Origin: Armatimonadota bacterium
GTDB taxonomy: Bacteria > Armatimonadota > SYMT01
Assembly (NCBI GenBank): GCA_041690135.1
Contig: JAWLHY010000004.1
Span: 192,001 to 256,000, forward strand
Length of the DNA: 64,000 bases
Direction of reading: 5' to 3'
Shown here: positions 16,772 to 60,936 of the stretch, one piece after another
Layout: each line of letters begins with the position of its first letter
How positions within the stretch are numbered: the stretch's first letter is position 1
Position numbers and translations under genes: made by a program
Notes under the pieces: generated by a model
What the model saw: only the letters and a program-made list of their open reading frames with translations
Databases searched by the model: none
What the model was told of the DNA's origin: nothing

Positions 16772-16788
16772 TTGATTCGCTCTTGGAA

Positions 16789-39183: not shown

Positions 39184-41658
39184 TCACCGGACCGCGGCGG
39201 TGGGGCAAAAGGCGTTCCAATCCAGGCTCCAGATGCCCCGCCCCCAGGTGGCCGCCATCACTCGCCCCGTCTTCCGGACGACCTGCACGTCCATCACCGG
39301 CACGTTTGGCAGCCCGAGTGGACGGGTGCCGTCCTCCCAGGAGACCCCGCCATCCCGAGAGTAGTAAAAGCCGCCATCCGTGCCCACATAGTAGCCGGTA
39401 TGCGGGGGCCGGGGATCCATGGCGACAGCGTTGATCGGCAAGTCCGGAAGGGCAATGTCGGGATCCTCGCCAGTGATCTTTCGCCACGCGGGCGCGTCGC
39501 GGGTGGTGTTGGCGCAGCGCCACAGGTTGGCCCCCCCGGTGCCGGAGAATGCCACCACGACCTCCCATGGCCGGCGCGGATGCACGGCAATCCCACTGAC
39601 GCCGCCCGAGGCCAGGGGGGCCTGCTCCCGGTCGAGCCGCCTCCAGCGCAGGCCCTGATCCGGCGACATCCAGATCTCCCCATCGCGATTGCCGACGTAG
39701 AGGTACCGGTTATGGCTCGGGGCCACTGCGATGTAAGTCAGGGGAGCAGTGCCGCTACTGGAGAGCAACTGGCCACCCAGGCGGGGGGTCCACTCTCGTT
39801 GGGAGGCATCCCAGCGCCAGAGATAAGTCGTGCCGGCGTAGAGGAGGTGTGGCTCCGCGGGATCGAGCGCAATCGGCGCGATGAACTCCCGAGTGTCCGT
39901 GCCCCAGGAGGGATGCCCCGGCCCGTCCGCATAGTCCACCCGCTGCTGGGGAGTGATCTCCGTCCGGGTCGTCCAGCCATCCTGGGTGGTGTAGATGTAG
40001 AGGTCGGCGGAGGTGGCGTATTGCACGCGCGGATTCTCGGGATGGACGGCACAGAAACCCCCATCTCCCAGGCCGGTGACGGCCCATTTCCCCGCTGCCG
40101 TGCGGTAGGGTGAAGCGTTGTCCTGCGCGCCGCCGATCAGCACGTTGCGGTTATCCTTGGCATAGGCGGCCCGGTAGAACTGGGTAATCGTAAGACCGGT
40201 ATTGAGGGAGCCATCGAAACTCCAGCGGTTCCGCGCCGGTTCCACGACGAGGCGGTAGACACCCCCGTCGTTTCCCACCAGGGTCTCATTCGGGTTCTCT
40301 GGATGAATGGCCATGCAGTGCTGGTCCACATGGGTTTCCGCGCGGTCCGTGTACGTCTTCCCCAGCGACTGCCAGGTGGCGCCGCCATCCCACGAAGCCA
40401 CCAGGTCGATGCCACCCACGTACAGGACATCCCCTTTCCGATCCGTCCGCCGGGCGCACGTAAGATGAAAGTTATGATGCGCGGATTGCCAGTGGGCGGG
40501 AATCCGCTGGCCATCCTCCTCCACCTTGGGTCCGCCGGGAAAGTTCCGGGTTAGCTCGGTCCAACTCCGTCCGGCATCCCGGCTCTTCCACACCGCACGA
40601 TCCCGGCCGGAGAGCAGATAGACTGTCATCGGATCTGTCGCGGATGCCGCCAGTTCCAGGCTGTCCTGCAACCCAGACGTGGCCACGTCATTCCGCAGCG
40701 GTGTTTGGAGCTTCTTCCAGTTGCGCCCCTGCGCGTCGGAACGCCACACCTCACCGCCGTGGTACCCAAGCCCGCAGGCGTAGTAGTAGCGACCGCCGCC
40801 AGGGAGCCGCTCACCACAGACGACATCCGACCAATCGGCGCCCTGCGGCACAGCCTTCGCCCAGGTACTCCCACCATCGGTCGAACGCCATACGAAACCT
40901 GACTCGTAGGGGTTCCGGCCCGCCGTCACCGTGAGCGTCTCGGGATCGTCCGGATGCAGCACAATCCGGCGCAGCGAGTAGCCACTCAATGCATCCGCGC
41001 CCGCCACGTCCCAGGTCTTCCCCCCGTCAAGGCTCTTCTGCAGGCCGTAGCCCCAACTGTTCGGCCCATGGTTGAAGTCGCCGGTCCCCACATAGAGCGT
41101 CTTCCCGTCCGGATGCACGGCAATGCTGTTGACGCGGGGGTTGGGCCAATCGTCACTCAAACATTCCCAACGGATCTCGCCCTTCCGTCGCCGCCAGAAC
41201 CCCCCACTCGCGGCGCCCAGATAGAGGGTATCCGGGTCGGCCGGGTTATAGGCCAGCGCGTTCACCCGCCCGCTGACCGGCCCGGGACCGAAGTCTTCCC
41301 GGGTCGGCGCCGGTAGTTCCTCCGGTCCTTCCAACGCCCAGTGGTGGGAACTCGCGAGGACCTGCGGCGGAACCGCCAGCATCCTGAAACCTTCCGCCGT
41401 GGGGCGACGGTCCGGCTTCCGCCCGTAGAACCGCTGGTACACGCGCCAGTCGATCCGGCCCGTGGGGCCGGTCCGCATCCGCTCCCAGTAGCGGCGCGCC
41501 CGGCCATACGGTGCCGGCGGCGCCCCGCCGGGCTGGGAGGCCGGATCCGCACTACTCGCGTACAGCGCCGTGAAGATACCGGCCACCAGCAGGGGACCGG
41601 CCACCCACCGCGCGAGCGGAAGCTTCCGGGACCACGAATAAGGAAGCGATGCGGGCAT
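39184..41658 (-). CDS. Secreted BNR/Asp-box (sortilin/Ycf48-like) double beta-propeller protein
   Basis: SGRVNALA, YLGAASGG.W, repeated S.DGG.TW boxes, HVDQH, GGAQDN, GDGG, AATWGRGIW. Confidence 0.82.
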   Translation of the reverse strand: MPASLPYSWSRKLPLARWVAGPLLVAGIFTALYASSADPASQPGGAPPAPYGRARRYWERMRTGPTGRIDWRVYQRFYGRKPDRRPTAEGFRMLAVPPQVLASSHHWALEGPEELPAPTREDFGPGPVSGRVNALAYNPADPDTLYLGAASGGFWRRRKGEIRWECLSDDWPNPRVNSIAVHPDGKTLYVGTGDFNHGPNSWGYGLQKSLDGGKTWDVAGADALSGYSLRRIVLHPDDPETLTVTAGRNPYESGFVWRSTDGGSTWAKAVPQGADWSDVVCGERLPGGGRYYYACGLGYHGGEVWRSDAQGRNWKKLQTPLRNDVATSGLQDSLELAASATDPMTVYLLSGRDRAVWKSRDAGRSWTELTRNFPGGPKVEEDGQRIPAHWQSAHHNFHLTCARRTDRKGDVLYVGGIDLVASWDGGATWQSLGKTYTDRAETHVDQHCMAIHPENPNETLVGNDGGVYRLVVEPARNRWSFDGSLNTGLTITQFYRAAYAKDNRNVLIGGAQDNASPYRTAAGKWAVTGLGDGGFCAVHPENPRVQYATSADLYIYTTQDGWTTRTEITPQQRVDYADGPGHPSWGTDTREFIAPIALDPAEPHLLYAGTTYLWRWDASQREWTPRLGGQLLSSSGTAPLTYIAVAPSHNRYLYVGNRDGEIWMSPDQGLRWRRLDREQAPLASGGVSGIAVHPRRPWEVVVAFSGTGGANLWRCANTTRDAPAWRKITGEDPDIALPDLPINAVAMDPRPPHTGYYVGTDGGFYYSRDGGVSWEDGTRPLGLPNVPVMDVQVVRKTGRVMAATWGRGIWSLDWNAFCPTAAVR

Positions 41659-41777
41659 AGTTAGAGTCCGAGATAGGGGGCGGCGCGTCTTGGGAGGCGG
41701 CGGGCTGCAGTCGTCGAACAGCCAGGATCGGCGGGCGCGGAGGCTCCACCACACCCGCCGATCCTGGCCGGAACCGA

Positions 41778-42917: not shown

Positions 42918-42979
42918 AAGTCACCTCCGGGTAGCGGCAGCAAGCATCCCACTCTCGGGCTGGCCTGCCGGTATACAGC

Positions 42980-43007
42980 AGTACACCGGCAAGCCGTCGA
43001 GTTTTCA
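42980..43007 (-). promoter_or_regulatory. Putative ECF promoter A (TGAAAA-N16-TGTACT) upstream of the dicopper gene
   Basis: Same spacing and flanks as the sites at 46861 and 58074; about 60 nt before ATG 42917. Confidence 0.65.
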
Positions 43008-43195
43008 CGTAAAGCGCAAGAGAATGCCGCCAGGCTGACGTCGAAGTCCACGATCCAAGCCACCGCTTCCGATTCTCGGAAATGCGCGGCGGTCCGTCTG
43101 GAGCACAGCCCCAGCGATAGAAGTATGCTTCGAACTCACCTCGACACAGGCTTCTGCCGGCCTGGCGAACACTCTGGACCACTTCTACTAGATCA

Positions 43196-45346: not shown

Positions 45347-45411
45347 GTGTTCTCCTTATCTAGGTGCTCACTCGTATGAGTTGAGCATTTGAGGCAAGCC
45401 ACGGTATGCGT

Positions 45412-46374
45412 TCAGGGGATCCGACCCCGAAAGTAGACTTCCACATGGGGGCTGCGTGCGACTTCATCGGGAGCGACTGCGGGACGAACGACGTTCCGAA
45501 CCATCCAATTCGACCAGCGGCGTGCAATCACAGCGTGGTAGAGGGGATCATTACTGTCCACATCAAACCCAATATGGTCATACATCTTCCAAACAAGCTG
45601 TGAGCAGTAGAGCCGGCGGTTGGTGTGCTTGTCCCAGAAGAAGAAGTTATAGGGCGTGTGTCCTCCCGACCTGAAGGTCGTCAATGCGCGACTGAGTGCC
45701 AGGGGTATTTGCGGCCGAACTTCCGCCGCACGGCAACGCCCAAACGCAATCACAGCCCCTTTACGTTTCTTCCAGTCATCCAAGAGATGGTGATTCACAC
45801 CATCGTGGAAATTCGATTCATATACTTTCGGCGGGGTCCCGCCGGCAAAGACCCCCACATGCCCGTATTGATCGGCCCAAGACCAGTTTTTGGAACTGTC
45901 GCCGTCTCGGATAAAGATGAGGTCTCCTACTTCTAACTGGTTGTAGTTGGGAGCAACGTTTGGCGAAGGAGCCATCGCCATCGCCGAGAGAAAGCTCATA
46001 TCGAGTGCCGACTTACTCTCTTCCTGGCGGAGAAGACCCTCAATGGCAGTTACACGCGTGAGGATAGTCTCAATCTCTTCGTGTGGAATATCGCTCTGCA
46101 GGCGCGCCACCAGCATTTTGGCCTCGTCCCGCAGTTCACTCTCACGTTCGCTTGGAGGGATGCGGTTTGCTGTGTTTAATGCCAGCGCTGCTATATCCGG
46201 GGCGACCCCCCGCCCAGGATAAGCCTGGACGCGCGCTACCTCGTTTGCAATCCTCCGAATGTCACTCCGGATACGCGACGATTCGACAGTCTCGGGTGAG
46301 AAATGTGTACTTCCCGCCTGCGTGGCGATTCCCACCAAGACTGCGAAGCACATCACAGCATTCTTCCCCTGCAT
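45412..46374 (-). CDS. Secreted permuted NlpC/P60 (YiiX/YebB-like) papain-fold amidase
   Basis: LEVGDLIF...YGHVGVF...PYN...YCSQLVWKMY (His before Cys); signal peptide; AGGAGAG RBS. Confidence 0.82.
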   Translation of the reverse strand: MQGKNAVMCFAVLVGIATQAGSTHFSPETVESSRIRSDIRRIANEVARVQAYPGRGVAPDIAALALNTANRIPPSERESELRDEAKMLVARLQSDIPHEEIETILTRVTAIEGLLRQEESKSALDMSFLSAMAMAPSPNVAPNYNQLEVGDLIFIRDGDSSKNWSWADQYGHVGVFAGGTPPKVYESNFHDGVNHHLLDDWKKRKGAVIAFGRCRAAEVRPQIPLALSRALTTFRSGGHTPYNFFFWDKHTNRRLYCSQLVWKMYDHIGFDVDSNDPLYHAVIARRWSNWMVRNVVRPAVAPDEVARSPHVEVYFRGRIP

Positions 46375-46675: not shown

Positions 46676-46703
46676 AGTACGCCAAGAAGCTCCGAGGATT
46701 TTA
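46676..46703 (-). promoter_or_regulatory. Putative degenerate ECF promoter D (TAAAAT-N16-CGTACT)
   Basis: -10 element GG-CGTACT identical to sites B and C; -35 matches 4/6. Confidence 0.45.
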
Positions 46704-46860
46704 TCGCCAATAAGATTTCTCATCGGGCAAACAACCGGAGGGAACCTTACTCGGGAAGCAGAAAGAGAGGAGAGTGGATGTTTTGGGGTGGTGCACCTTC
46801 GCCGGAACCTGACGAACGCTCCGCCGGGCAGGCCCGAAGCGCAAGATTTGCGGGCGGGCG

Positions 46861-46888
46861 TGAAAAACTTCGGTGGCGCCGGCGTACT
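46861..46888 (+). promoter_or_regulatory. Putative autoregulatory ECF promoter B (TGAAAA-N16-CGTACT)
   Basis: 41 nt before the sigma ATG; resembles the SigW-type TGAAAC-N16-CGTA architecture. Confidence 0.72.
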
Positions 46889-48487: not shown

Positions 48488-51115
48488 ATGCCGAGCCTGA
48501 GCGAACTCACCCGACAACTGGCGGAAGGCACCCGGGCGCAGAAGCGGCGGAGTTGGCGGTCCCTCATCCTGGAGGGAGGCTTGTGGCCCGCGTGTCAGGC
48601 GGCGCTCCTGGAAGCATCTCCCCTCGACTGTCTGGGGGCTGCCTACGAGCACCTGTCCGCCGAGTGGGACCGCTCCCCCCTCCGCGCGGGAGACGCGGAG
48701 GAGGTCTGTCGTGTTGAACAGCAGATCGCTGAAGCTCGCAAGGTCGTGGCAGCGGCCGCTCTCGCGGCCCTGGCACGCGGCGAAGCGCCGGGTGAGTGGT
48801 TGGAAAAGTGGGCGTACCGGGCGGTGGGCAACCTTCCGCCTTTCCGGGTGCTGACCGCGGGAGTGACTGCCGGTGGCCCGAGTGAGGCCCGCATCCGCGC
48901 CTGCTTCGCCGGGCTGCTGAACAGCTCCTCCATATCGCGGCCTATGGTAGCGGCGGCACAGGACGCCAGCCTGGCATTCCTCTGGGCCGCTCTCGGCGAG
49001 GAGAAGCGTCCCTGTCACCGTCGCCTGCGAGTGCCCCTGCTGCTGGCGCGCGGAACCGAAGGCTTTCTCGCCTGGCTCTGGTTGGAGCAGGTGCCCGGGG
49101 GCTCGGGACAGGTGTTCCAGGCGCCCAGCACGACCCTGGAGCCCATCCTGGCCGATCTGCGCCGGACGATCGAACAGGCCTGCCTGGCGGTACTGCCGGC
49201 CGGAGGGGATGCGGACCTACGCTGGTGGCTCACCGACCTGCCCCTGGACGCCCAGGGCCTGCCGATCCCGGTCGGCGGCGGTTCGGCGGCGGCGGCGGCG
49301 GCTGTCGGAGCGTTGCTCCTGCTACAGGATGCCCCGCCGGCCGCGAACTGCGCCGTAAGCGCCACCCTAACCGCGGACGGACGGCTGGGCCCGGTAGAGG
49401 GACTTCACGGCACGGGCCCCAAGCTCACCGCCGCGCGAGCCCTCGCGGCCGTTGACCGGCCCGCCCGGGTCATCGTCAGCCCGGAGAGCCAGTTGTCCGC
49501 GCCTGCCGCGGCCGGATGGGAAGCGCGCGGTGTTCAGGTCGTCGTCGCCCCTTTCCTGGAGGAGGCCGTGCGGCATTTCCTGTCCCCGAGAGAGACTAAA
49601 GAGCAAGATCGGCGCAGCGAGTCGACCATGCCGCTTTCCGCGTCACCGAGGATACCCGCTCCGCAGATCCGGGTGATTTACGCCCGGGACACGCCCGCCG
49701 ATCGGGAACTGCTGGAGAAGCTGCAGAACCAACTACGGGAGCACGGGTTTTCAGTGGGGGCCGACCGCCACCAGGACGTGGGGCTCGAATGGGCGCGCGA
49801 GACGGAGCGGGAGATCCGGGCGGCGGACGTGGTATTGGTACTGCTTTCTCGTGCGGCCGCCCGCAGTGAGATGCTCGCCTACGAGCTTCAGATTGCCCAC
49901 GAGGCCGCACAAGGCACGGGAAAGCCACGGCTGCTCGCCGTAGACACCCGGGTAGGCGCTGCGCCACGCTGCCTGCCCGGTCTCACCGCCACCCTGGCAA
50001 CTTACCCGTGGGAACCAGGCATGGATGCGGACGCCCTTCCGCCCGCACTGTTGGACGCAATCCGGAAGCCGCCGGGAGTCGCCTCGCGCCAGGAACGGGA
50101 ACAATTGGTCCCCCCTACCGGCGTGCTGCCGCTGGATTCCGCTTTTTATCTGGAGCGCGACGCGGACGCGGCCTTCCGCACCGCCATGGGGCGCCGGGAC
50201 AGCATCATCCGGATCAAGGGTGCACGCCAGATGGGCAAGACCTCGCTCCTGGCGCGCGGATTGCAGGCGGCCCGGGAGCAGGACGCCCGCGTGTTCCTCA
50301 CCGATTTTCAGCTCTTCAACCAGTCCCATCTGGAGTCGGTAGACCACTTCCTGTTAACGCTCGCCCGCTGGCTGGCCCGGCAGGCTGCGGTGGATCTCCA
50401 GCCGGATGAAGTGTGGGACTCCCTCCAGGGCGCCAGCGTCAACTTCCGTGACTTTCTCCTGGAGTTGCTGGAGCGCCTGCCCGGCCCCGTGGTTTGGGGG
50501 CTGGATGAAGTCGACCGCCTCTTCACCTGCCCCTTCCGCAGCGAAGTGTTCGGACTACTCCGGTCGCTGCACAACGACCGGGCCCTCAATCCCCGTCTTC
50601 CCTGGTCCAAACTGACGATGACCCTCTGCTACGCCACGGAGGCTCACCTCTTCCTCGCCGACCTGAACCAGTCCCCCTTTAATGTAGGCACCCGGATCCT
50701 GCTCAATGACTTCTCGCCCCTTGAGCTGGCGGATCTCAACCTGCGCTACGGCGCACCGCTGACCAGTAGTGGAGAGTTGGCCGCCTTCTACGAGCTCCTG
50801 GCAGGGCACCCTTACCTTAGCCACCGGGCTCTCCATGAAATGGTGACTCAAGAGCTGACACTAGCCGATCTGCAGCGCCAGGCCAACCGGGAGGAAGGGC
50901 TGTTTGGAGACCACCTGCGGCGGCTGGTGCTGCTGCTGGCCAGGGACCCCGCCCTTTACCATGCCGTACGGGAGGTGATCCAGGGACGCCCCTGCCCCAC
51001 GCCGGAGAGCTTCCATCGCCTCTGGACAGCAGGCGTACTGGTGGGGGATTCCGCGCAAGACGCCCGCCCTCGCTGCTATCTGTACGCCACCTATCTGGAG
51101 CGTCACCTGCAATGA
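48488..51115 (+). CDS. Lon (S16)-like protease domain + TIR domain + AAA_35 NTPase fusion
   Basis: VGGGSA...AVSATLTADGRLGPVEG...PKLTAA; TIR IYARD...EW...IRAADVVLVLLS...SEMLAYEL; FYLER...KGARQMGKTSLL, LDEVD, QSPFNVG, GHPYL. Confidence 0.8.
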   Translation: MPSLSELTRQLAEGTRAQKRRSWRSLILEGGLWPACQAALLEASPLDCLGAAYEHLSAEWDRSPLRAGDAEEVCRVEQQIAEARKVVAAAALAALARGEAPGEWLEKWAYRAVGNLPPFRVLTAGVTAGGPSEARIRACFAGLLNSSSISRPMVAAAQDASLAFLWAALGEEKRPCHRRLRVPLLLARGTEGFLAWLWLEQVPGGSGQVFQAPSTTLEPILADLRRTIEQACLAVLPAGGDADLRWWLTDLPLDAQGLPIPVGGGSAAAAAAVGALLLLQDAPPAANCAVSATLTADGRLGPVEGLHGTGPKLTAARALAAVDRPARVIVSPESQLSAPAAAGWEARGVQVVVAPFLEEAVRHFLSPRETKEQDRRSESTMPLSASPRIPAPQIRVIYARDTPADRELLEKLQNQLREHGFSVGADRHQDVGLEWARETEREIRAADVVLVLLSRAAARSEMLAYELQIAHEAAQGTGKPRLLAVDTRVGAAPRCLPGLTATLATYPWEPGMDADALPPALLDAIRKPPGVASRQEREQLVPPTGVLPLDSAFYLERDADAAFRTAMGRRDSIIRIKGARQMGKTSLLARGLQAAREQDARVFLTDFQLFNQSHLESVDHFLLTLARWLARQAAVDLQPDEVWDSLQGASVNFRDFLLELLERLPGPVVWGLDEVDRLFTCPFRSEVFGLLRSLHNDRALNPRLPWSKLTMTLCYATEAHLFLADLNQSPFNVGTRILLNDFSPLELADLNLRYGAPLTSSGELAAFYELLAGHPYLSHRALHEMVTQELTLADLQRQANREEGLFGDHLRRLVLLLARDPALYHAVREVIQGRPCPTPESFHRLWTAGVLVGDSAQDARPRCYLYATYLERHLQ

Positions 51116-54100
51116 TTCCGGACGTCTCCGATTTTTACGTCACCGGCGGCACGCTGAGTCAGGACACTCCTTCCTACGTGGCCCGCCGCGCCGACTCGGA
51201 GTTGTACAGAGGCCTCCGGCGTGGGGAGTTCTGTTACGTACTAACCGCGCGGCAGATGGGGAAGTCCTCGCTCATGGTGCGCACCGCCGAACGTCTGCGC
51301 GAGGACGGCTTCACGGTGGCAACCCTCGACCTCACCATGGTGGGCCAGAACCTGACGATCGAGCAATGGTACTACGGTCTGCTCAATCTCCTCGGGCGCC
51401 AGTTGGGCCTGCGGCCGCAACTGCGCGAATTCTGGTTACAGCACGCGCAATTGAGCCCTCTGCAGCGCTTCATGACCGCCCTGCGCGAAGTCGTCCTGGA
51501 GCAGTTGGTCGCGACAGAGCAGCACACGTCCACCGCTGTGGCCGGCCTGCAGGACCCGAGCCTCGCCAGTGCTGAGGAAAGCACTGGCGCGCCCTCCCCT
51601 CTTCCCGCTCCACCCTCTCACACTCACCACGCCTGCGCGCCTCGCCTCGTCCTGTTCATCGACGAGATCGATACCGTCCTCAGCCTTCCGTTCAGTACCG
51701 GGGAGTTCTTCGCCGCCATCCGGGAATGCTACAACCGGCGGTCCGAAGACCCCGCGCTGGAGGGCCTCACTTTCTGCCTCCTGGGGGTGGCTTCTCCTTC
51801 CGACCTGATACGCGATCCCCGCACCACCCCCTTCAACATCGGCCTTCGGATCGAACTCCAGGACTTCACCCTGACCGAGGCCGGTCCCCTGGCTGTTGGG
51901 CTCCAACTAGGCGCGGCGGGTGCTCCCCTCCGGTCGCCCAGGGTCGCGCTGCGGCTACTCCGCAGGATCCATTACTGGACAGACGGGCATCCCTATCTCA
52001 CCCAGCGGCTCTGCCGAGCAGTGGCGGAAGACCCGACCGCACGCGATCGCCGTGGCGTGGACCGGATCTGCCGCCGCCTCTTCCTGGAGCCGGGGGCGCA
52101 GCAACGCGACGACAACCTGCTCTTTGTCCAGGAACGGTTGACCTCCGGGGGCGGCGACACCGCCGGGTACCTGGAACTGTATTCCCGGATCCGGGCCGGC
52201 CGGCCGGTCCCCTGCGACGAGCGAGATCTCCGGGTGCCCACTCTCCGGCTCTCCGGCATCATCGGTGTGCGCCGGAACCTGCTGCGGGTGCGCAACCGGA
52301 TCTACTACACCCTGTTCGATCAACGCTGGGTGCAGTCCCATCTTCCGGATGCGGAGGTCCGGCGACAACTCGCCGCCTATCGCCGGGGTCTGCTGCGGTC
52401 CACTCTCCTTTCGAGCCTGGTCATCCTCGCATTGGCCGGCCTTTCCGTGGGTCTCTTTCACCAGCGCAACACCGCACGGAGGGCCTCCGCCACATACGCT
52501 CTGCAACGAGGAATACAACTGCTGCGGGATGGTGACGGGACTGGCCTGCTCGATCTCCTCGAAGCGTACCGAACCGCGGGAGGCGACCGCGATCTCCAGC
52601 AGTCCATTGGGAGAATCTGGGCGGGCTGGTACAACACCCACGCCGGACGCTTGATGGAAGTTCTGGATGCTGGGGAGGACATCGCCGCGCTGGCCGTTCG
52701 ACCCGACGCCAGGCAGCTTGCAGTAGGCGGCGCCCAAGGTGGACTGCGCCTGTACAACACCTCGAACTGGACGTCCGCCAGTCCCGCCCTGCGACATCCG
52801 GAACCTCTGACACAACTAGTGTACGCTGCCCGGCGGCCCTTCCTGGCGGGCCGCGGAGACCACATGGTTCAGGTGTGGGACCACTCCGGAAGCCGGTTAC
52901 TGCACCGGTTTCGCTCACCGGACCGCATCCGTGCTGTAAGCTTTGTCGGATCAGGCGAGCTTCTTGCGGTCCGCACTACACGCCAGGTTCACCTCTGGGA
53001 GACTACCGGCTGGCACGCAGTTCCTTCACCGAACACCGGCACGGATGGAGTGGTGGACGCAGCGTTCGGACCGGGACGGGATAGACCCGTAGCGCTAGCA
53101 ACCACGCACGGAGTAATCCTCCATTGGCTCAGAAGCGGACGGCAGCATCTCCTGCGACTGCCGGAGGGTGGTGTCAATCACCTTCAGTTCAATTCTACCG
53201 GCAAACTGCTTGCCCTTTCCTGGGGCGATCGCCTACGCCTCTGGGACGTGGAGAGGAGATCTTTTCGGCCGGAAATCTTCAATTCTCCCGAGCCCATTAA
53301 GGCGGTGCAGTTCGGCCCACGAGACTGTCTCATCGCCCAGTCGGAAGAAATGGTGCGCCTCTGGTCAACCAGCGAGTACCCGGGGATGGGCCTTCCGCTG
53401 CCGCACGGTGCGGAGATCCGCACCACGACCCTGCCAGAAAGGGGACCGTCGATTCTGACCCTGTCCGCAAGTCGCATCCGTCTGTGGGACCTGGCGACCG
53501 GTCGGGAGCGGGCGAGTGTTGCAAACCAGGGAGGATTCGGGGCCGTGGCGTGCGACCCACAGTTCCGCTGGATCGCCTCCGCACCCACCGGCAGTACCCT
53601 GCGGATCTGGAAGTTCCCAGCCAACCCCTCCCCCAACGAAGTAGTCGGACGCAACGTCGCGCCGGAACTCGCCTGGTATCAAATGGACGGAAGCGCGCTT
53701 CACACAGCGGACCGCAATACGATGTTCATCCGGACCGGCCATACCGGACGGAGAACAACCGAACGGCGGGATTTAAGGGGAACCGGTTATCGGCTGGCAG
53801 TCAGCCCCCAGCGGGAGTTCCTGGCAACCACTGGAACCGGCTCCCTTCACCTGTGGAACGGCCGAACGGGTGATCCGCTGGGGAGACCTCTACCCCACAC
53901 CGGTGTGCCGAGTTGTCTCGATTTCAGCCCAAGTGGGAAACAGATCGCTCTGGGATCCGACTCTCGGCACCTCTGGATCTCAGACACGGCAACCAACCAG
54001 CTAACCAGGCCACCCCTAGAGCTACCCTTTGCACCCCAATACACTGCATTCAGCACGGTTGGTTCTTGGGTCGCGGCGGCGGACACCAAACGGATTGAAG

Positions 54101-54801
54101 TCCACTCCCTTAACGGCCAGGCGGAACATTATCGGATTCAACCCGAGGGCGCGATCTTCTGGATTGGCTTCATTCCCGGCACTCAAGTGCTGATCGCGGC
54201 GGCCGGCAATACCCTGACGCAGTACGACTGCTCGTCCGGGAGTTCCCAACTCCGAGTGGTTCACCTGCCGGCTCGTCTTCGGAGTGTCGCGTGCGATTAC
54301 CCTCGCGGAAGGCTGGCGATTGCGACAAAGGATCACCAGGTCCGCATCCTCGGCCTCCACCAGATGCAACCCGTTGGCCCTGAACTCCGCCTGGAGGAGC
54401 CGGTGAGCACAATGGCCTTCAGCGCGGACGGCACGTCGCTTGCTACCTGTACAGCATTCAGAATGGTTCAGGTCTGGGATCTGCGCACAGGTCAGCCGAC
54501 CGGTCAGCGGCTGGCGCACCCGACACTGGTGCGAACTCTCGAGTTTCATCCGGAAGGCGAGGAACTGGCCGCGCTCACGGATAGCGGCCTTCACCTCTGG
54601 AAGCTTCCCAGGCCGGAGGTATCTCTACAAGAGATGCAGCGAATGTCCTGGGTGGCCCTCGACACCTGGAGTATTGGCCAGGCGGTCGAAGCCATTCCCG
54701 CCGGGGTATGGCGCCGAATGCGGGATGGGCTCCGCGCACGATTGGCGGGAAAGCCAGAAGTCGGTCGACCTAGGCCCGCCCCACGGATAGCCAATCTGTA
54801 G
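51112..54801 (+). CDS. AAA_35 NTPase + single TM + WD40 repeat protein
   Basis: YVTGGTL...SYVARRAD, ARQMGKSSL, FIDEID, TPFNIG, WTDGHPYLTQRLC, VRNRIY; hydrophobic LLSSLVILALAGLSVGLF; many LWD/VWD/FSP repeats; ATGA overlap. Confidence 0.88.
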   Translation: MIPDVSDFYVTGGTLSQDTPSYVARRADSELYRGLRRGEFCYVLTARQMGKSSLMVRTAERLREDGFTVATLDLTMVGQNLTIEQWYYGLLNLLGRQLGLRPQLREFWLQHAQLSPLQRFMTALREVVLEQLVATEQHTSTAVAGLQDPSLASAEESTGAPSPLPAPPSHTHHACAPRLVLFIDEIDTVLSLPFSTGEFFAAIRECYNRRSEDPALEGLTFCLLGVASPSDLIRDPRTTPFNIGLRIELQDFTLTEAGPLAVGLQLGAAGAPLRSPRVALRLLRRIHYWTDGHPYLTQRLCRAVAEDPTARDRRGVDRICRRLFLEPGAQQRDDNLLFVQERLTSGGGDTAGYLELYSRIRAGRPVPCDERDLRVPTLRLSGIIGVRRNLLRVRNRIYYTLFDQRWVQSHLPDAEVRRQLAAYRRGLLRSTLLSSLVILALAGLSVGLFHQRNTARRASATYALQRGIQLLRDGDGTGLLDLLEAYRTAGGDRDLQQSIGRIWAGWYNTHAGRLMEVLDAGEDIAALAVRPDARQLAVGGAQGGLRLYNTSNWTSASPALRHPEPLTQLVYAARRPFLAGRGDHMVQVWDHSGSRLLHRFRSPDRIRAVSFVGSGELLAVRTTRQVHLWETTGWHAVPSPNTGTDGVVDAAFGPGRDRPVALATTHGVILHWLRSGRQHLLRLPEGGVNHLQFNSTGKLLALSWGDRLRLWDVERRSFRPEIFNSPEPIKAVQFGPRDCLIAQSEEMVRLWSTSEYPGMGLPLPHGAEIRTTTLPERGPSILTLSASRIRLWDLATGRERASVANQGGFGAVACDPQFRWIASAPTGSTLRIWKFPANPSPNEVVGRNVAPELAWYQMDGSALHTADRNTMFIRTGHTGRRTTERRDLRGTGYRLAVSPQREFLATTGTGSLHLWNGRTGDPLGRPLPHTGVPSCLDFSPSGKQIALGSDSRHLWISDTATNQLTRPPLELPFAPQYTAFSTVGSWVAAADTKRIEVHSLNGQAEHYRIQPEGAIFWIGFIPGTQVLIAAAGNTLTQYDCSSGSSQLRVVHLPARLRSVACDYPRGRLAIATKDHQVRILGLHQMQPVGPELRLEEPVSTMAFSADGTSLATCTAFRMVQVWDLRTGQPTGQRLAHPTLVRTLEFHPEGEELAALTDSGLHLWKLPRPEVSLQEMQRMSWVALDTWSIGQAVEAIPAGVWRRMRDGLRARLAGKPEVGRPRPAPRIANL

Positions 54802-54839
54802 TTAGTACGATCTATGACCAGTAACGAAAGGAGTTAGAG

Positions 54840-55253: not shown

Positions 55254-55395
55254 GCGCACGGTATTTTGACCGGACCAGTCGCGCAGGAGCACGGGAGATA
55301 GGCTGTCGGCTCGTGTTCCTGCGTGACACGGAGCCGGATAATTCCGCATCGGTTGAGGCAGGACCGATGCGGATTCAACCACTGGGGCGTTGTTA

Positions 55396-56211
55396 CTAAT
55401 CCGGTGCGAACCACGCCTCCGCCTCCGGGATTTCGCCGGTGAAAGCTTGGTAGGGATACCACTTGGCGTGTGCATCGAAATGGATCACATTCTGACCAAG
55501 ACTGTGTCGTGTATGCGCCTTTGGGTCTATCTCCGCCCCCCCGCCTCCGGCCCACGGCCAGTATTGATCGGCGTTGGCGGCCTGCATCGGGTTTATTGTT
55601 GAATGATTTGCAAATGCAACCCGCGTCACCTCGGCGTAAAACCAGACCGCGTCGGCAAGCATGACTTTCTCACTTGGCTTCGTAATCGCCGCCAGGGCGA
55701 AGCCGGGTACCGCACACCCACCTGTAACAGATCCGCGGCACTGACGGAATAGAAACATGTTCCACCCGTAGCCGTGAGCCCGCCCGCGGCTCGTGTCACC
55801 GGGAAAACAAAAGCTCTGCGGAAATCCATAGGAGCCAATCATGCAAGACTGTTGGCTTGCGTTCCAGAGTACTCGATCGCGCGGACCGCTGGGACACGCG
55901 TAGATCTCCACGCTCTTCACATATGGATGGATGCGGGTTTCCACGCGCGTGTCCGGATTGGCGGTACTGCACGGCTGGGATGGGGATCCACTGCGGCAAC
56001 TGGACGCATCGACTGGGTAGAGTTCGTCATGGTCGGTTGCATACTGTTCGACGGCCGCGGCGATCTGCTTTAAGTTACTCAAGCAAACGACCTTACGCGA
56101 CGCCTCGCGCGCGCTGGCAAACACAGGAAAGAGAAAAGCAGCAAGCACGGCGATGATGGCAATCACGACCAGCAGCTCGATCAGGGTGAAACCGCGATTC
56201 CGCCCAGGCAT
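55396..56211 (-). CDS. Prepilin-type N-terminal methylation / DUF1559-like protein with H-X9-DG-like C-terminal motif
   Basis: [31 protein letters not shown]...CLSNLKQI; [16 protein letters not shown]. Confidence 0.9.
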
Positions 56212-56435
56212 CTCTATCTCCTTCCAAGTGCTCGTCATCCGCGAAGCTCCGGGGGTGGTGTCGCTCTGACGCCAAACAGTCCGAACGCCCGGCGGGCTCT
56301 GGCTCCAGCGTACACAATCCAGTTTCACTGCAGGCAAAGAAACACCTGCCTGCCCGGTGGGCAATTCCTGTATCGAACCAACTTCCTGCCTTTTTAAACG
56401 CTACTGGACCACTCATTCAAAAGGAACACTCACCG

Positions 56436-57968
56436 ATGAAACAGCGACATGGCGAGGGAGACCGACTCTTCCCGGGAAGCGCCCGGCTTGAAGCTCGGGG
56501 GATTGAGATCACGGAGGCAACAGCTCTCTTGAGCACTTTCACCGGCCCTGGGCAGTTCGGGTTGTTGTTTCCCGACCTGAATCCCTTCCGGCCTACCGAC
56601 GCCCAACTCATGGCGCTCGGTAAGGCGATGGAAGACGCAAACTTCCGCGACAAACCGGAGCCCAAAGCCGGTGACCATCCTTCGCTCCCCGCCGGCTACA
56701 CGTATCTCGGTCAGTTCGTGGATCACGACATTACGTTCGATAAAATGCGGTCCATACCGCCACAGGCCGTAGATCCGGCCACCCTCAAGCAGGCACGGAC
56801 TCCGGCGCTCGATCTCGACTCGCTCTATGGCTTGGGACCGGAAACAGATCAAGGCCTGTATCAATTGGATTTCGGCCCGGACCACGCTCGTTTCAAGATC
56901 GGTGCTACCCGCGGCGAGGAGACCGCGGGGGATCAACTCCTCAAACAGTCCCTGCCGCACGATCTCTTCCGCAATGCTGAAGGGGCAGCCGTGATCGCGG
57001 ACGAGCGCAATGACGAGAACGTCGTGATTGCACAGTTGCACCTCGCCTTTCAGCGCTTCCACAACAAGGTTCTCGACGGGTTGGCGGCGGGTACGGTGGC
57101 GTCGGCCGGAGGCGACACCCCTTTCGAGCAGGCGCGCCGGCTGGTCCGGTGGCATTACCAGTGGATTGTTTGGGAGGATTTCCTACCCCGGATCGTTGAC
57201 CCCGCAGTGCTTCAGAGAGTCCGCAAGGAGGGTCGGAAGCATTACCAGTGGGACGTGGCGAGCGGCCCCTATATGCCTCTAGAGTTCTCGGTGGCGGCCT
57301 ACCGGATGGGGCACAGTCTGATCCGCCAGTCATACGAATTCAATCGCGTTTTTAGTACCGGGTCGGGAGAGGGAAGAGCCAGGCTCCATCAACTGCTACT
57401 CAACACCGGACCCGGCGTCGAAGTTCCCTTGGAAACGAAGTGGATCATCGACTGGCAACACTTCTTCTCGCTCGACCCAGCGGTGAGCCCCAATCCCTCC
57501 CGCCGCCTGGACACCGTCCTTGCGAACCCGCTGGGGGAACTAATGCGGTTTGTGAACACCTCCGACCTGCCGGCATCGCTGGCCCAGCGCAACCTGCTGC
57601 GGGGCAGCCGGTTAGGGTTGCCCTCCGGACAGGACGTGGCAAAACACCTTGGCATCCCACCCCTCACGAAGGATGAGTTGTCTACCGGCAAGACCGGGGA
57701 CGCAGCCGCGACGGCGGAACTGGTCGAGCAGACGCCGTTGTGGTTCTACATCCTCAAAGAGGCCGAGATGCGGGAAAGCGGCGAGCGCCTGGGGCCGGTG
57801 GGGAGCCTTATCCTGGCGGAGGTGTTCGTCGGGCTGCTGGAGGGGGACCCGGAGTCCTTCTTCCGCGCGGATTCCCCCTGGGTGCCCACGCTCGGTCCGG
57901 TGCCGGGGCAGTTCACCATGGCTGATCTTCTCCGTTTTGTAGGATACGTCAACCCGCTGGGCAAGTAG
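56436..57968 (+). CDS. Heme peroxidase, peroxidase-cyclooxygenase (animal-type) superfamily, copy 1
   Basis: GYTYLGQFVDHDIT, DLDSLYG, DERNDEN, FHN, RWHYQWI, AAYRMGHS, TPLWFYILKEA. Confidence 0.9.
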   Translation: MKQRHGEGDRLFPGSARLEARGIEITEATALLSTFTGPGQFGLLFPDLNPFRPTDAQLMALGKAMEDANFRDKPEPKAGDHPSLPAGYTYLGQFVDHDITFDKMRSIPPQAVDPATLKQARTPALDLDSLYGLGPETDQGLYQLDFGPDHARFKIGATRGEETAGDQLLKQSLPHDLFRNAEGAAVIADERNDENVVIAQLHLAFQRFHNKVLDGLAAGTVASAGGDTPFEQARRLVRWHYQWIVWEDFLPRIVDPAVLQRVRKEGRKHYQWDVASGPYMPLEFSVAAYRMGHSLIRQSYEFNRVFSTGSGEGRARLHQLLLNTGPGVEVPLETKWIIDWQHFFSLDPAVSPNPSRRLDTVLANPLGELMRFVNTSDLPASLAQRNLLRGSRLGLPSGQDVAKHLGIPPLTKDELSTGKTGDAAATAELVEQTPLWFYILKEAEMRESGERLGPVGSLILAEVFVGLLEGDPESFFRADSPWVPTLGPVPGQFTMADLLRFVGYVNPLGK

Positions 57969-58073
57969 TGACGGGCACTGCAAAGCGGGTCGTTTCCGCC
58001 ACCTCGCAGCGCGTGCGCCCGGCGGCTCTGGAACCCGGCAAATTCAGGGAAGGGGCCGACACAGCAGCAAGAC

Positions 58074-58101
58074 TGAAAAATGTTGGCCCGTTCGGCGTAC
58101 T
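58074..58101 (+). promoter_or_regulatory. Putative ECF promoter C (TGAAAA-N16-CGTACT)
   Basis: Exact match to site B in both boxes and spacing; 61 nt before ATG 58163. Confidence 0.72.
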
Positions 58102-58162
58102 GACAGCATGGGGACGGCTTTACCGTCCCCAACATCACCTACGGCGAACGGAGGCTACCCTC

Positions 58163-59731
58163 ATGCAACGGCACCACGGAGACGCGCCCCGCCTGCTGCC
58201 CGGCAACCCGGCCCTGGATGCGCAGGGAGCAGAGATCACGCGGAGCGTATCGGTCCTGAGTACCTTCACCGGCCCCGGCGAGTTCGGCCGGATGCTGCCC
58301 GACCTCTTGCCCTTCCGGCCGAGCGATCGGGCACTCATCGAACTGGGTGTGGCGATGGAGGACGCCGATTTCGGCACGGACCCGGAAGACCCGGACGGGG
58401 ACAACCCGAACATCCCCGCCGGCTTCACCTATTTCGGGCAGTTCGTCGATCACGACATCACCTTCGATAAGACGGAGGGATTTCCCGACGAGGCCCTGGA
58501 CCCGGAGGTGATTGTGCAGGCCCGCACGCCTTCCCTGGACCTCGACAGCCTCTACGGTTTGGGGCCGGAGCTCCAGCCGGACCTGTACGAGCCGGGAGAT
58601 CCGGCGGACCGCGCCCGGTTTCGGATTGGCGCTACCAGCGGGGAGTCGTCACCCGATGAAACGGGGCAGCCCCTCCCTGTTTCGCTGCCGCACGACCTTC
58701 CACGGGGCGCCGATAACCGGGCCCTGATCGGCGACCCGCGCAACGACGAGAACCTGGCGGTAGCGCAAACTCATCTCGCGTTCCTCCAATTCCACAACCG
58801 GGTGCTGGAGCAGCTCCTGGCGGGCGAAGTGGCGCCGGTCTGTACGGGAACGCCCTTCGAGCAGGCCCGGCAGATCGTGCGCTGGCATTACCAGTGGATC
58901 GTGCTCCACGACTTCGTGGCCCGCCTGGTGGATCCGGAAATCCTGGCTCGCGTGCTGGCGGAAGGGCGCCGCTTCTATCTGTGGGAACAGCATCCCTCGG
59001 GACGCCCCTTCATGCCCATCGAGCATTCCGTGGCGGCCTACCGCCTGGGCCACAGCATGATCCGGCAGAACTACAACTTCAACCGGGTGTTCCGCACCGG
59101 TGGGCTGGCCGTGGCCGGGCTCGATCTCCTGTTCCACTTCACCGGAAACAACCGGCCGGCGCCCGTGCCGGGACTGCCACCGGGCGCCCCCATTCCTTCG
59201 AACTGGATCATCGATTGGAGGCGTTTCTTCGCGCTCGACCCGGCGGTAACGCCGAACGCTTCCCGCAAGCTGGACACCCGCCTGGCCAACCCGCTCCGCT
59301 CGCTACCGGAGTTCCGGGGCACCGACAACCAGCCGGAGTCTCTCGCGCAGCGCAACCTGCTGCGCGGCAGCCGTCTCGGTCTTCCCTCCGGACAGGACGT
59401 AGCCGAGCGCCTGGACATCGATCCGCTCCCGGCAGAGGTCATTGCCACCGGACCGGCGGGAGAGGTGGCGGCTCGGCATCACCTGCAGCACCAGACCCCC
59501 CTCTGGTTCTACATCCTGAAAGAAGCGGAGGCGCTCGAAAGCGGGGTCCGGTTAGGACCGGTGGGCAGCATCCTCATCGCGGAGGTATTCGTGGGGCTCC
59601 TCCAGGGAGATCCGCTCTCCTTCATGAAGGCCGATCCGGATTGGAAGCCCACGCTCCCGTCCGCCACGCCAGGCGCCTTTTCCATGGCCGACCTGCTGGC
59701 CTACGTCGGCAACGTCAACCCCCTGGGATGA
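58163..59731 (+). CDS. Heme peroxidase, peroxidase-cyclooxygenase superfamily, copy 2
   Basis: GGAGG RBS; GFTYFGQFVDHDIT, DPRNDEN, AAYRLGHS; collinear paralogue of copy 1. Confidence 0.9.
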   Translation: MQRHHGDAPRLLPGNPALDAQGAEITRSVSVLSTFTGPGEFGRMLPDLLPFRPSDRALIELGVAMEDADFGTDPEDPDGDNPNIPAGFTYFGQFVDHDITFDKTEGFPDEALDPEVIVQARTPSLDLDSLYGLGPELQPDLYEPGDPADRARFRIGATSGESSPDETGQPLPVSLPHDLPRGADNRALIGDPRNDENLAVAQTHLAFLQFHNRVLEQLLAGEVAPVCTGTPFEQARQIVRWHYQWIVLHDFVARLVDPEILARVLAEGRRFYLWEQHPSGRPFMPIEHSVAAYRLGHSMIRQNYNFNRVFRTGGLAVAGLDLLFHFTGNNRPAPVPGLPPGAPIPSNWIIDWRRFFALDPAVTPNASRKLDTRLANPLRSLPEFRGTDNQPESLAQRNLLRGSRLGLPSGQDVAERLDIDPLPAEVIATGPAGEVAARHHLQHQTPLWFYILKEAEALESGVRLGPVGSILIAEVFVGLLQGDPLSFMKADPDWKPTLPSATPGAFSMADLLAYVGNVNPLG

Positions 59732-59850
59732 TCCAGACCGCGTGAGCCCGGGTCCGTTCGAGTGTGCGCGATCGGTGAATAACCCGGCCGTTTCGTTGTG
59801 CGGCGCGGAGAAAGTCTCCCGCCGCACTTCTTTAGATACGAGGTGGGAAA

Positions 59851-60936
59851 ATGCCTGAAGATCCCGGAGACGGCAGTTCAAAGTTGTTCCAGAAACTTTC
59901 GCTCCTCCCGCAGGCGCGGGTGATTGGAGCGCTGGTTGGTCACTCCATGTTGCTGACCCTTCTGGTGACTTATGCTCTGATCGAGGTGTTTCCCCACGCC
60001 TCGCTTACTCGCCACATCAACGCAAATCTGTCGGCGCCGGTCAATACCAACACGCCGCCCGCTGATCCTGCTAACGTGCCCAACCCGTCCGCCGGGAATG
60101 GCACCAACGGCACGGGGACGGGCACTGGCAACGCATCTCCAGCTACCGCCGGCAAACCTACCGGTTCCCCGACCCCTGGCGTCGGAACTGATGGCTCCGC
60201 TACCTCACCTTCCAACGCAAAGCCGGCCAGTCAGGGCCAGGCACCAGGTGCGCCGGCAGCCGCTTTCACGGAACGGTCACGAGTAACTCTCTTCCAGGTA
60301 CTGACGATTGCCATCACGTGGGAGGCCCGACTACTCCTGATGGTAGCCCTGGCCGGAGTATTAGGCAGCCTCATCCACGCGATGACCTCCCTCACGGACT
60401 ACATCGGTAATCGAAGTCTGGTACTGAGCTGGATACCGTGGTATCTGCTTCGCCCTCTCAACGGCATGGCGCTCGCGCTGCTTTGCTATATCGCTGTTCG
60501 AGCCGCCGGCCCAGCCACTCCCGAGTACAATCCGTTTAGCTTTGCATTACTGGCGGGGCTTGCCGGTCTCTTTTCCAAACAGGCAACTGACAAACTCGAG
60601 GAACTATTCAGCCTGCTTCTGCGCCCCTCTCCTGGCAAGGGAGACCAGGCGAGGAAGGATTCCCTGGTGCAAAAGCCGGTGCTCTCGGCGTTAGACCCTA
60701 AGGAGCTCACGGCGGGAGCGGCCAGTGCCACAGTGAGGTTGCTCGGCAGTGGATTCTCTGCGGCCCTGGGGGTTACGGTCAACGGCCAGGCAAGACCTTA
60801 CGTGATGATGTCCCCAACGGAACTGCGCGTGGACCTGCGGACCGAGGACTTGGCTCAGCCGGGTGATCTCACGGTTGTGCTGGTGCATCAACCCACGGGT
60901 GCGCAGATCGGTTCGCTTCGGGTCCCCGTGCAGTAG
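59851..60936 (+). CDS. Multi-pass membrane protein with low-complexity loop and C-terminal IPT/TIG-like domain
   Basis: AGVLGSLIH...SWIPWYLLRP..G...AGLAGLFSKQATDKL; PVLSALDP...VRLLGSGF...VNG. Confidence 0.72.
   Translation: MPEDPGDGSSKLFQKLSLLPQARVIGALVGHSMLLTLLVTYALIEVFPHASLTRHINANLSAPVNTNTPPADPANVPNPSAGNGTNGTGTGTGNASPATAGKPTGSPTPGVGTDGSATSPSNAKPASQGQAPGAPAAAFTERSRVTLFQVLTIAITWEARLLLMVALAGVLGSLIHAMTSLTDYIGNRSLVLSWIPWYLLRPLNGMALALLCYIAVRAAGPATPEYNPFSFALLAGLAGLFSKQATDKLEELFSLLLRPSPGKGDQARKDSLVQKPVLSALDPKELTAGAASATVRLLGSGFSAALGVTVNGQARPYVMMSPTELRVDLRTEDLAQPGDLTVVLVHQPTGAQIGSLRVPVQ

Follow-up and report, generated by a model that had tools for sequence, protein, structure and literature searches.

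A candidate sigma factor operon in an Armatimonadota genome that may couple a split AAA_35-WD40 receptor and a Lon-like protease to transcription

The window analyzed here is a 64-kb stretch of DNA (G000:C4:192001-256000) from a 9.1-Mb source genome, G000, with 65% G+C (0.651). Between 46.9 and 55.3 kb of the window, five genes run head to tail on the + strand and form an operon encoding a divergent extracytoplasmic function (ECF)-type sigma factor, an anti-sigma factor, an effector in which a Lon-like domain is followed by TIR and AAA_35 domains, a sensor comprising AAA_35, a transmembrane (TM) helix, and WD40 repeats, and a small Cys/His-rich protein (Table 1). This core had been proposed in a first-pass annotation of the same DNA, and all five genes were found in the order claimed. 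The order sigma, anti-sigma, effector, sensor recurs in 3/3 of the four-gene contexts that could be retrieved, namely the window, a paralogous locus on contig C7 of the same genome (L013), and a metagenome contig (L021), so that the co-occurrence of ECF sigma, zinc-binding anti-sigma (ZAS), Lon, and AAA_35 genes that the first-pass annotation had put up for checking holds in each. The start of the window sigma gene was placed by alignment with the sigma of L021. The window protein scores 38.5 bits with TIGR02937 (curated cut-off 42.9) and 22.3 bits with Sigma70_r2 (curated cut-off 24); the C7 paralog scores 45.2 bits with Sigma70_r2.

Searches with single sequences give no indication of the nature of the N-terminal part of the effector. 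Residues 1–400 have no match in Pfam, in NCBIfam, or with phmmer against the PDB, and the N-terminal 411 residues and the TIR stretch, used as single sequences against the PDB, returned nothing useful. With residues 1–400 as the query, HMMER found only 60 relatives of this N-domain at E ≤ 1e-3 among 1.84 billion representatives. Alignment A1, which has 32 rows (the window sequence and 31 relatives picked for long matched stretches), contains seven invariant columns, P183, W246, G264, S266, V303, G305, and K312, with S266 and K312 thus present in 32/32 of the aligned sequences. At E ≤ 1, the A1 profile matches 49 PDB sequences, comprising 41 Lon proteolytic domains (best 2.4e-8), six NLRC4 or NLRP sequences, and two of PRP2; the NLRC4 matches are weak (E = 0.004). 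S266 aligns with the Ser of GPSAG in Lon and K312 with the Lys that precedes TIAAK. An AlphaFold2 model of residues 1–400 based on a 14-row alignment (predicted local distance difference test score (pLDDT) 86, predicted template modeling score 0.84) has a helical domain at residues 1–170 and then an α/β domain, and its top match in Foldseek is the proteolytic domain of Escherichia coli Lon (3wu6_A; E = 4e-8, TMt 0.77, root mean square deviation 2.9 Å). Because the family profile, the alignment of the Ser and Lys, and the predicted fold agree, we conclude that the effector contains a Lon-like Ser-Lys protease domain. The Lon domain claimed at first pass is therefore upheld by the family profile and predicted fold, although Pfam is silent on the window protein alone; the TIR and AAA_35 domains claimed with it are matched by Pfam itself (TIR_2, 2.7e-13; AAA_35, 2.3e-69).

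The sensor contains the second AAA_35 domain of the pair (8.2e-21 in Pfam), and its ATG start codon overlaps the stop codon of the effector gene (ATGA), an overlap (ATGA or GTGA) that is found in 3/3 loci. In both proteins Walker A retains its GK[ST] core and a Walker B-like hhhhDE sequence is present, as judged by script and by eye; the script also picked out LVLFIDE as a Walker B-like stretch in the AAA_35 pair. The P-loop NTPase is placed between the effector output and the repeat sensor, as in signal transduction ATPases with numerous domains (STAND) and NOD-like receptors (NLRs), but this arrangement is split over two proteins. Among the 32 aligned relatives, the Lon-like N-domain is accompanied by NACHT in 15, AAA_35 in 10, TIR_2 in 8, HEAT_2 in 7, and WD40 in 2; the single-chain relatives carry their own HEAT (7/32) or WD40 (2/32) repeats, whereas the window encodes the sensor arm as a protein of its own. 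Because relatives fuse the Lon-like domain to NACHT or AAA_35, these comparisons identify it as a putative N-terminal output domain of STAND-type NTPases, with AAA_35 in the place of NACHT. In each of the six AAA_35-WD40 sensors from G000 and L021 that were examined, the NTPase is followed by one TM helix. Three other AAA_35 pairs of G000 consist of a BTAD-AAA_35 protein and then an AAA_35-TM-WD40 protein (1530–1607 residues); AAA_35 pairs seem to be a general type of split receptor whose output can be exchanged. The BTAD output, which is of the Streptomyces antibiotic regulatory protein (SARP) type, is a direct activator of transcription. The simplest reading of the Lon variant, standing beside sigma and anti-sigma genes, is that it reaches a transcriptional output such as that of the BTAD pairs by an indirect path. 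With BTAD outputs in three sister pairs, the AAA_35 family looks like one of transcriptional signaling and not necessarily of defense.

Two close relatives of the effector, P0003 (742 residues) and P0006 (714 residues), have the Lon-like and AAA_35 domains and a gap over the TIR stretch in alignment A2. The Glu of the TIR motif SxWCxxEL, which we take to be catalytic, is present in five of nine TIR-bearing relatives and is replaced by Thr in the paralog; a nearby Glu, in the sequence SE, is kept in 9/9 of the TIR-bearing sequences. The TIR domain is probably accessory, either contributing to assembly or providing a second output. It would be the principal component if the locus were an abortive-infection or defense unit, in which TIR would act by NAD+ cleavage or by producing a signal, the Lon domain would process its own protein or a phage target, and the sigma and anti-sigma factors would tune expression. 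The TIR_2 match is in keeping with such a unit, and TIR-STAND and NACHT/Avs proteins are established anti-phage systems according to the excerpts of the literature consulted. G000 also has tandem TIR-AAA_35 genes without Lon (533 and 713 residues; contig C16, L014 4163–7839), with no adjacent AAA_35-WD40 gene among the listed open reading frames (ORFs). We regard a defense unit as decidedly unlikely because P0003 and P0006 dispense with the TIR stretch, the presumed catalytic Glu varies among the relatives, the BTAD-output paralogs point to transcriptional signaling, and hydropathy would place the sensor domain outside the cytoplasm, unlike the phage sensors described from the cytosol. Nor did PADLOC, one of the checks suggested at first pass, give a meaningful family match: in PADLOC-DB 2.0 the best is bSEFIR (0.0042, 15 bits), and a match to HEAT-ARM_XIII (6.3e-8) covers the WD40 part only.

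The anti-sigma factor has no match in Pfam or NCBIfam and no TM or hydrophobic segment in a hydropathy scan. In an alignment of eight proteins (those of the window, the C7 paralog, and L021, and five from databases), two Cys/His clusters are invariant in 8/8, in agreement with its first-pass description as a double-ZAS protein. The first, C31, H54, C58, and C61, has the canonical ZAS pattern C-x22-H-x3-C-x2-C and the second, H74, H99, C105, and C108, the pattern H-x24-H-x5-C-x2-C. The predicted structure (pLDDT 73.5) has a helical N-terminal half and a β-rich C-terminal domain at residues ∼145–296, separated by a Pro-rich linker (∼120–145) that includes a low-confidence stretch at 126–141. The protein resembles ZAS factors of the RsrA/ChrR class in its Cys...His-x3-Cys-x2-Cys motif, its solubility, and the position of its gene directly downstream of that for sigma, but differs in the second Cys/His cluster and in the C-terminal domain of ∼150 residues that is found only with Lon-AAA_35 genes; it also lacks a Pfam anti-sigma family, and a fold search with this model gave no significant match (ChrR at rank 3, E = 0.016, probability 0.69). 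A word-based search limited to lengths of 162–518 residues found six clusters of anti-sigma relatives among 5.8 billion. Its profile matches 14 of the 401 genomes of the phylum, yet positions 1–295 are covered only by the two copies in G000, and the matches in the other 13 genomes are confined to positions 3–151, the ZAS part. Because the full-length profile is confined in this way, it is the C-terminal domain of the anti-sigma that accompanies the Lon-AAA_35 gene.

The three contexts have diverged considerably. The C7 locus has 43% identity with the window in sigma, 33% in anti-sigma, and 46% in effector (residues 4–874) and also encodes an AAA_35-TM-WD40 sensor; L021 has 45% identity in sigma, 42% in anti-sigma, and 50% in the effector N-domain, and the sensor is present. 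L021 is the one confirmed locus among 107 pattern matches in metagenome contigs with the four-row alignment A3, and 66 pattern matches in genome contigs with the same alignment yielded none. In the 401 phylum genomes, the effector N-domain matches only two, G000 twice and G267 weakly (2.5e-8). In G267 (contig C37, L022 6173–14150), a Lon-like-NACHT protein of 912 residues is preceded by two genes, one encoding a sigma70-ECF-like protein (1.8e-7, under the cut-off, with a long insert) and the other a protein with two HxxxCxxC motifs, and is followed by genes for a 295-residue protein and a HEAT-repeat protein (843 residues). By analogy, the G267 genes may encode a remote, single-chain counterpart of the arrangement in the window. 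The surroundings of the operon are not shared: nine flanking proteins of the window have no match at E ≤ 1e-3 in L013 or L021, the small Cys/His-rich protein shows no similarity to a 155-residue protein of L021, and the sole non-self match of the flanking proteins within G000 (eight considered, DUF1559 left out) is between two peroxidases that are 59% identical. Divergent from the paralogous sigma operon, L013 also encodes a 1083-residue protein (14205–17456, + strand) in which canonical WD40 repeats are numerous and an AAA_35-type domain is weakly matched.

The first-pass annotation had described one promoter motif before the sigma gene and three flanking units. All four sites were confirmed, the fourth in a relaxed form, and each precedes a gene start in the correct orientation. 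GTGAAAA-N-GTACT, seen upstream of the sigma and tyrosinase-like genes, has two matches in the window against 0.01 expected. TGAAAA-N17-GTACT has three matches genome-wide, all at the window locus (mean of 1.0 in three order-3 Markov genomes), and AAAA-N13-15-GG[CT]GTACT has seven distinct sites in the genome, four of which are at the window locus (mean of 3.0 in three simulated order-3 Markov genomes), the fourth of these at 46702–46676 on the − strand; the three remote sites are inside long high-GC3 ORFs. Transcription would be predicted to start ∼7 nt past each GTACT. The sequence [CT][CT]GG[CT]GTACT is common to the four local sites. No motif was found upstream of peroxidase 1. Because the pattern was derived from two sites, the independent evidence consists of the third and fourth sites and the placement. 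ECF sigma factors generally autoregulate, and since one site precedes the sigma gene, we infer that the motif is read by the window sigma. The motif and the gene order together bear on whether the genes are functionally coupled at all, as opposed to being adjacent by descent in one lineage, with motif sites that are there by chance or belong to another sigma. The small number of contexts, two of them in one genome, the unconserved flanks, and the post hoc definition of the motif would be compatible with such a lack of coupling, which we nonetheless hold to be highly improbable: the gene order, the translational coupling, and the joint rarity are all maintained at 33–50% identity, and 3/3 exact and 4/7 relaxed sites fall, oriented before gene starts, within 15.1 kb of the 9.1-Mb genome.

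We consider it somewhat probable that the operon encodes a signaling chain that starts at a split STAND-like receptor spanning the membrane. In this chain the receptor would switch on the Lon domain, which would cleave the anti-sigma and so release the sigma to transcribe its own operon and three local units. The 1229-residue sensor, with a cytoplasmic AAA_35 domain, one TM helix, and extracytoplasmic WD40 propellers, would detect a cue outside the cytoplasm, and its AAA_35 domain would co-assemble with that of the soluble 875-residue effector. This assembly would bring together and activate the Lon-like Ser266/Lys312 protease domains, which would then recognize the anti-sigma through its family-specific C-terminal domain and cut it, probably in the disordered Pro-rich linker. 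The sigma so released would transcribe its own operon, giving positive feedback, and would also drive the genes for a C92 amidase and a secretin-like protein, those for a tyrosinase-like protein and a BNR propeller, and that for peroxidase 2, perhaps with the membrane protein downstream. We infer the biochemical steps, the sensor topology, the trigger, and the biological role in this scheme. A similar chain had been put forward at first pass, and this part of the earlier interpretation is favored by the synteny in 3/3 contexts, the joint rarity, and the local motifs; the immune output that was attached to it is not.

The first-pass annotation had also suggested multimer modeling of Lon with the anti-sigma. 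Prediction of a complex between effector residues 1–385 and the anti-sigma gave a result graded as weak support, with a median score of 0.52 against 0.01 for the best of three controls; contact agreement among the runs was at least 88%, and the pLDDT of the partners was at least 78. Of 80 solved complexes, 58 reached the mark for support, as did 2 of 110 mismatched pairs; these counts are only roughly valid for this prediction, which used its own alignments. At scores of 0.60 or below, the mark was reached by 7 of the 80 solved complexes and by both of the mismatched pairs that passed. The prediction nudges the odds toward an interaction without establishing binding.

Several observations weigh against the proposed chain. 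The score of 0.52 lies in a band where, by this calibration, passes would more often be wrong unless the guess is already likely. The scores of the window sigma fall under the curated ECF cut-offs. No CalpL chain is among the 49 PDB matches of the A1 profile, and hence no special kinship of the Lon domain with CalpL is seen. Two of the counted sites served to define the motif, and at L013 and L021 no comparable motif repeats could be established, the two-block matches there being at chance level. The best of them, ATCACG-N17-GATACT, occurs in L021 before the sigma gene and again at 10265, as chance would allow in a search of this kind; with one more base, ATCACG-N17-GATACTG occupies L021 2420–2450 and 10265–10293, the second copy ∼250 nt before a downstream ORF of 597 residues, and the −10-like GATACTG of this chance-level match resembles the GTACT of the window. 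Only three full contexts are available and two of them are paralogs in one genome, so their independence is low. The two-ZAS protein of G267 aligns with the anti-sigma profile with an hhalign probability of only 2.3%, over the C-terminal 33 columns. In addition, the ZAS motif is canonical, and the anti-sigma could respond to redox or metal alone. The operon would then be governed by a self-contained redox, thiol, or metal switch like RsrA or ChrR, and the Lon-TIR-AAA_35 protein and the sensor would not be regulators but cargo, for example a stress-induced defense or suicide module. Such a switch would account for the invariant C-x22-H-x3-C-x2-C and second Cys/His cluster, for the haem peroxidase and tyrosinase-like genes in the regulon, and for the position of the effector and sensor genes downstream of sigma and behind its promoter. 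ECF/ZAS pairs with a similar N-terminal part also exist without Lon or STAND genes: in genome G127, an ECF sigma gene is directly upstream of the ZAS match, with metabolic genes downstream and no Lon or STAND gene, and a 4.5-kb contig of G207 shows a sigma beside the ZAS match. A self-contained switch would not explain why the family-specific C-terminal domain was found, among the 401 phylum genomes, only in the one that also carries Lon-TIR-AAA_35, why the order of the four genes is kept at 33–50% identity in 3/3 contexts while the flanks change, or why G267 has an analogous set of sigma-like, two-HxxxCxxC, and Lon-like-NACHT genes; the roughly calibrated complex prediction also weighs weakly against it. 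We consider a self-contained switch unlikely and retain activation of the Lon domain by the split receptor as the preferred reading.

The genes on either side of the operon differ in how well they can be identified. On the − strand, the C92 and secretin-like genes lie nearest. The first of these, described at first pass as NlpC/P60, is by Pfam a Peptidase_C92 (YiiX-like) protein. The secretin assignment is weakly to moderately supported: SctC is matched at 9.7e-6 (24 bits against a cut-off of 238) and InvG at 0.046, there is no Pfam match, the Atlas score is 0.92 for clusters whose members are 100% PF00263 (Secretin), and a C-terminal IPxLGxLPLIG-like stretch aligns with InvG. The supposed dicopper oxidase is probably a type-3-copper protein, but on weak matches only: PvdP tyrosinase is matched at 7.6e-4 (18 bits against a cut-off of 625), the Atlas values of 0.76–0.79 are leads only, His-rich motifs were read by eye, and neither Pfam nor the PDB gives a match. 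The Sortilin/BNR propeller named with it was confirmed by Pfam, and the two heme peroxidases reported downstream of the operon are both An_peroxidase proteins. The start of peroxidase 2 was moved from GTG 57968 to ATG 58163 because of the motif site at 58074. The protein annotated as an IPT/TIG membrane protein does have multiple TM segments, but its Ig-like domain is CoaZ_rpt/Qn_am_d_aIII and not IPT/TIG; it may be co-transcribed with peroxidase 2. The prepilin-like gene between the operon and the peroxidases, which the first-pass annotation did not mention, starts at TTG 56364 in the ORF list; if it is started instead at ATG 56211, which has a GGAGA-type site, the N-methylation motif falls at residues 4–28. 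The AT-rich parts remarked on at first pass are present (21/60 G+C at 44521–44580), and G+C is 0.569 in the secretin-like gene, 0.558 in the C92 gene, and 0.541 in the small Cys/His gene, compared with 0.651 in the genome. A simple hydropathy scan found no N-terminal hydrophobic segment in the tyrosinase-like protein or in either peroxidase, and for this reason an extracellular cross-linking role is not favored. The output genes occur as single copies and only at this locus. An output of melanization or prophenoloxidase-like immunity, as proposed at first pass, is unsupported; besides this lack of hydrophobic segments, the flanking genes are unconserved at the other two loci, PADLOC gives no known defense family, and only peroxidase 2 of the two peroxidases carries the motif. 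As separate observations, families typical of Planctomycetota (DUF1559/N_methyl, PSCyt1/2, PSD1) are present in and around the region, among them a PSCyt1-PSCyt2-PSD1 (DUF1549/DUF1553) protein at 61244–64000 on the + strand, a typical planctomycete gene that extends past the window end and is probably unrelated to the unit; and at 19608–19857 of the window, 14 copies of the 7-bp repeat GGTTGAA adjoin 6.3 copies of a 25-bp tandem repeat (95% matches).

Table 1. Features of the window, with related AAA_35 pairs elsewhere in the genome
Feature	Position	Strand	Basis or remarks
Sortilin-Vps10/BNR propeller protein	39184..41754	−	Pfam; 23 nt downstream of tyrosinase-like gene
Probable type-3-copper (tyrosinase-like) protein, 379 aa	41778..42917	−	Weak matches only
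Motif TGAAAA-N17-GTACT	42980..43007	−	63 nt before tyrosinase-like gene
Divergent secretin-like protein, 716 aa	43196..45346	−	Weak to moderate matches; N-terminal hydrophobic segment
Peptidase_C92, YiiX-like permuted papain-like amidase	45412..46374	−	Pfam 8.2e-16
Relaxed motif ATAAAA-N18-GTACT, sharing GGCGTACT	46676..46704	−	∼300 nt upstream of C92 gene
Motif TGAAAA-N17-GTACT	46861..46888	+	42 nt before sigma start codon
Divergent ECF-type sigma, 192 aa	46930..47508	+	Family matches below cut-off; kin at C7 and L021
Soluble anti-sigma, 296 aa	47556..48446	+	Two invariant Cys/His clusters; no Pfam family
Effector, 875 aa (helical, Lon-like, TIR, AAA_35)	48488..51115	+	Pfam, family profile, predicted fold
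Effector helical domain, residues 1–170	48488..48997	+	AlphaFold2 model, pLDDT mostly >85
Lon-like Ser-Lys protease domain, residues ∼175–375	49010..49612	+	Profile and fold; S266 49283-49285, K312 49421-49423
TIR domain, residues 398–499	49679..49984	+	Pfam TIR_2
Effector AAA_35 NTPase module	50114..51100	+	Pfam AAA_35; Walker A GARQMGKT; Walker B-like VWGLDEVD, read by eye
Sensor, 1229 aa, AAA_35-TM-WD40	51112..54801	+	Pfam, hydropathy; WD40 propellers ∼516–1206
Sensor single TM helix, residues 431–449	52402-52458	+	Hydropathy scan
Small Cys/His-rich protein, 137 aa	54840..55253	+	6 Cys and 6 His; no family; not conserved at other loci
DUF1559/N_methyl prepilin-like gene	55396-56211	−	Between core operon and peroxidases
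Haem peroxidase 1 (An_peroxidase)	56436..57968	+	Family match; tandem paralog of peroxidase 2
Motif TGAAAA-N17-GTACT	58074..58101	+	Between the two peroxidase genes, before peroxidase 2
Haem peroxidase 2 (An_peroxidase)	58163..59731	+	Start shifted
Multi-TM protein with CoaZ_rpt/Qn_am_d_aIII Ig-like C-terminal domain	59851..60936	+	Family matches, hydropathy
BTAD(SARP)-AAA_35 pair	C8 (L015 4637-11234)		
BTAD(SARP)-AAA_35 pair	C4:88201-... (L016 7350-13844)		Outside window
BTAD(SARP)-AAA_35 pair	C1 (L017 4252-10927)		

The closest functional parallel is CalpLTS, which the excerpts consulted describe as a type III CRISPR system of the SAVED-Lon protease CalpL, the anti-sigma CalpT, and the ECF-like sigma CalpS. 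As far as these excerpts go, the two have in common a Lon protease fused to an oligomerizing sensor module and encoded beside genes for a soluble anti-sigma and an ECF-like sigma, as well as the expected logic in which assembly leads to cleavage of the anti-sigma and a transcriptional response. They differ in that sensing in the window would fall to two AAA_35 (STAND-like) proteins, of which one has a TM helix and WD40 repeats, with no SAVED domain or sensing of cyclic oligoadenylate; a TIR domain is inserted in the effector; the anti-sigma is of the ZAS type with a novel β-rich C-terminal domain; and the Lon domain is not specifically CalpL-like. Pfam finds no SAVED domain in the window effector or in the 32 relatives, a search of the genome for SAVED was silent, as it also was in the control genomes, and the 64-kb window contains no tandem-repeat array typical of CRISPR, although cas10 was not searched for. 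Because it lacks SAVED, the defining feature, the unit is not a member of CalpLTS, yet its proposed manner of working is similar. That it is a CRISPR-independent counterpart, in which a two-protein membrane-spanning NLR-like receptor converts an extracytoplasmic cue into transcription through Lon cleavage of a double-zinc anti-sigma recognized by its C-terminal domain, is possible but, in this full form, rather doubtful.

Other relationships are more distant. Like STAND/NLR proteins (Avs, bNACHT, and the AfsR type), the unit has an N-terminal output, a central P-loop oligomerization module, and a C-terminal repeat sensor, but the module is divided so that effector and sensor each have an AAA_35 domain, the sensor crosses the membrane, and the output is a protease that would be aimed at an anti-sigma, not a nuclease, NADase, or DNA-binding domain. 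The BTAD-AAA_35 paralogs resemble AfsR-like SARP-NTPase regulators, as far as these are covered in the excerpts consulted (AfsR is cited in PMC13581612). The nearest precedent in the literature consulted is that of the EACC2-caspase conflict systems, for which, in the portions of Kaur et al. (eLife 2021, PMC8195603) consulted, a linked ECF sigma is proposed as the final transcriptional step. These also are peptidase-containing, NTPase-era conflict neighborhoods with an ECF sigma, but they use a caspase, EACC2, and a DUF1822 TPR protein; the terms "anti-sigma" and "AAA_35" are absent from the paper, and its two word-start matches to "Lon" are "long" and the name of a journal. In the main text of an ECF reclassification (PMC7826278), the whole words TIR, Lon, AAA, STAND, and NTPase do not occur; the genomic contexts of ECF groups are listed in its supplements, and these may bear on novelty. 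The first-pass statement that the combination was not recognized as a described system agrees with the literature searched, in which no description of this gene combination was found, the supplements on the genomic contexts of ECF groups being outside that search.

The unit offers a compact system of four genes and four candidate promoters in which to follow the transfer of a signal from a split STAND receptor, and its Lon/sigma output can be compared with the SARP-type output of sister pairs inside one genome. Were the proposed chain correct, its output would be an oxidative and envelope program comprising a tyrosinase-like enzyme, a haem peroxidase, an amidase, and a secretin, and the logic of CalpLTS, in which Lon cuts an anti-sigma, would reach beyond CRISPR signaling. 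STAND assembly would then be a third route to the activation of ECF sigma factors, beside membrane proteolysis cascades and the cyclic-nucleotide-activated CalpL, and bacterial NLR-like assemblies would control gene expression through proteolysis of anti-sigma factors and not act through killing effectors alone.

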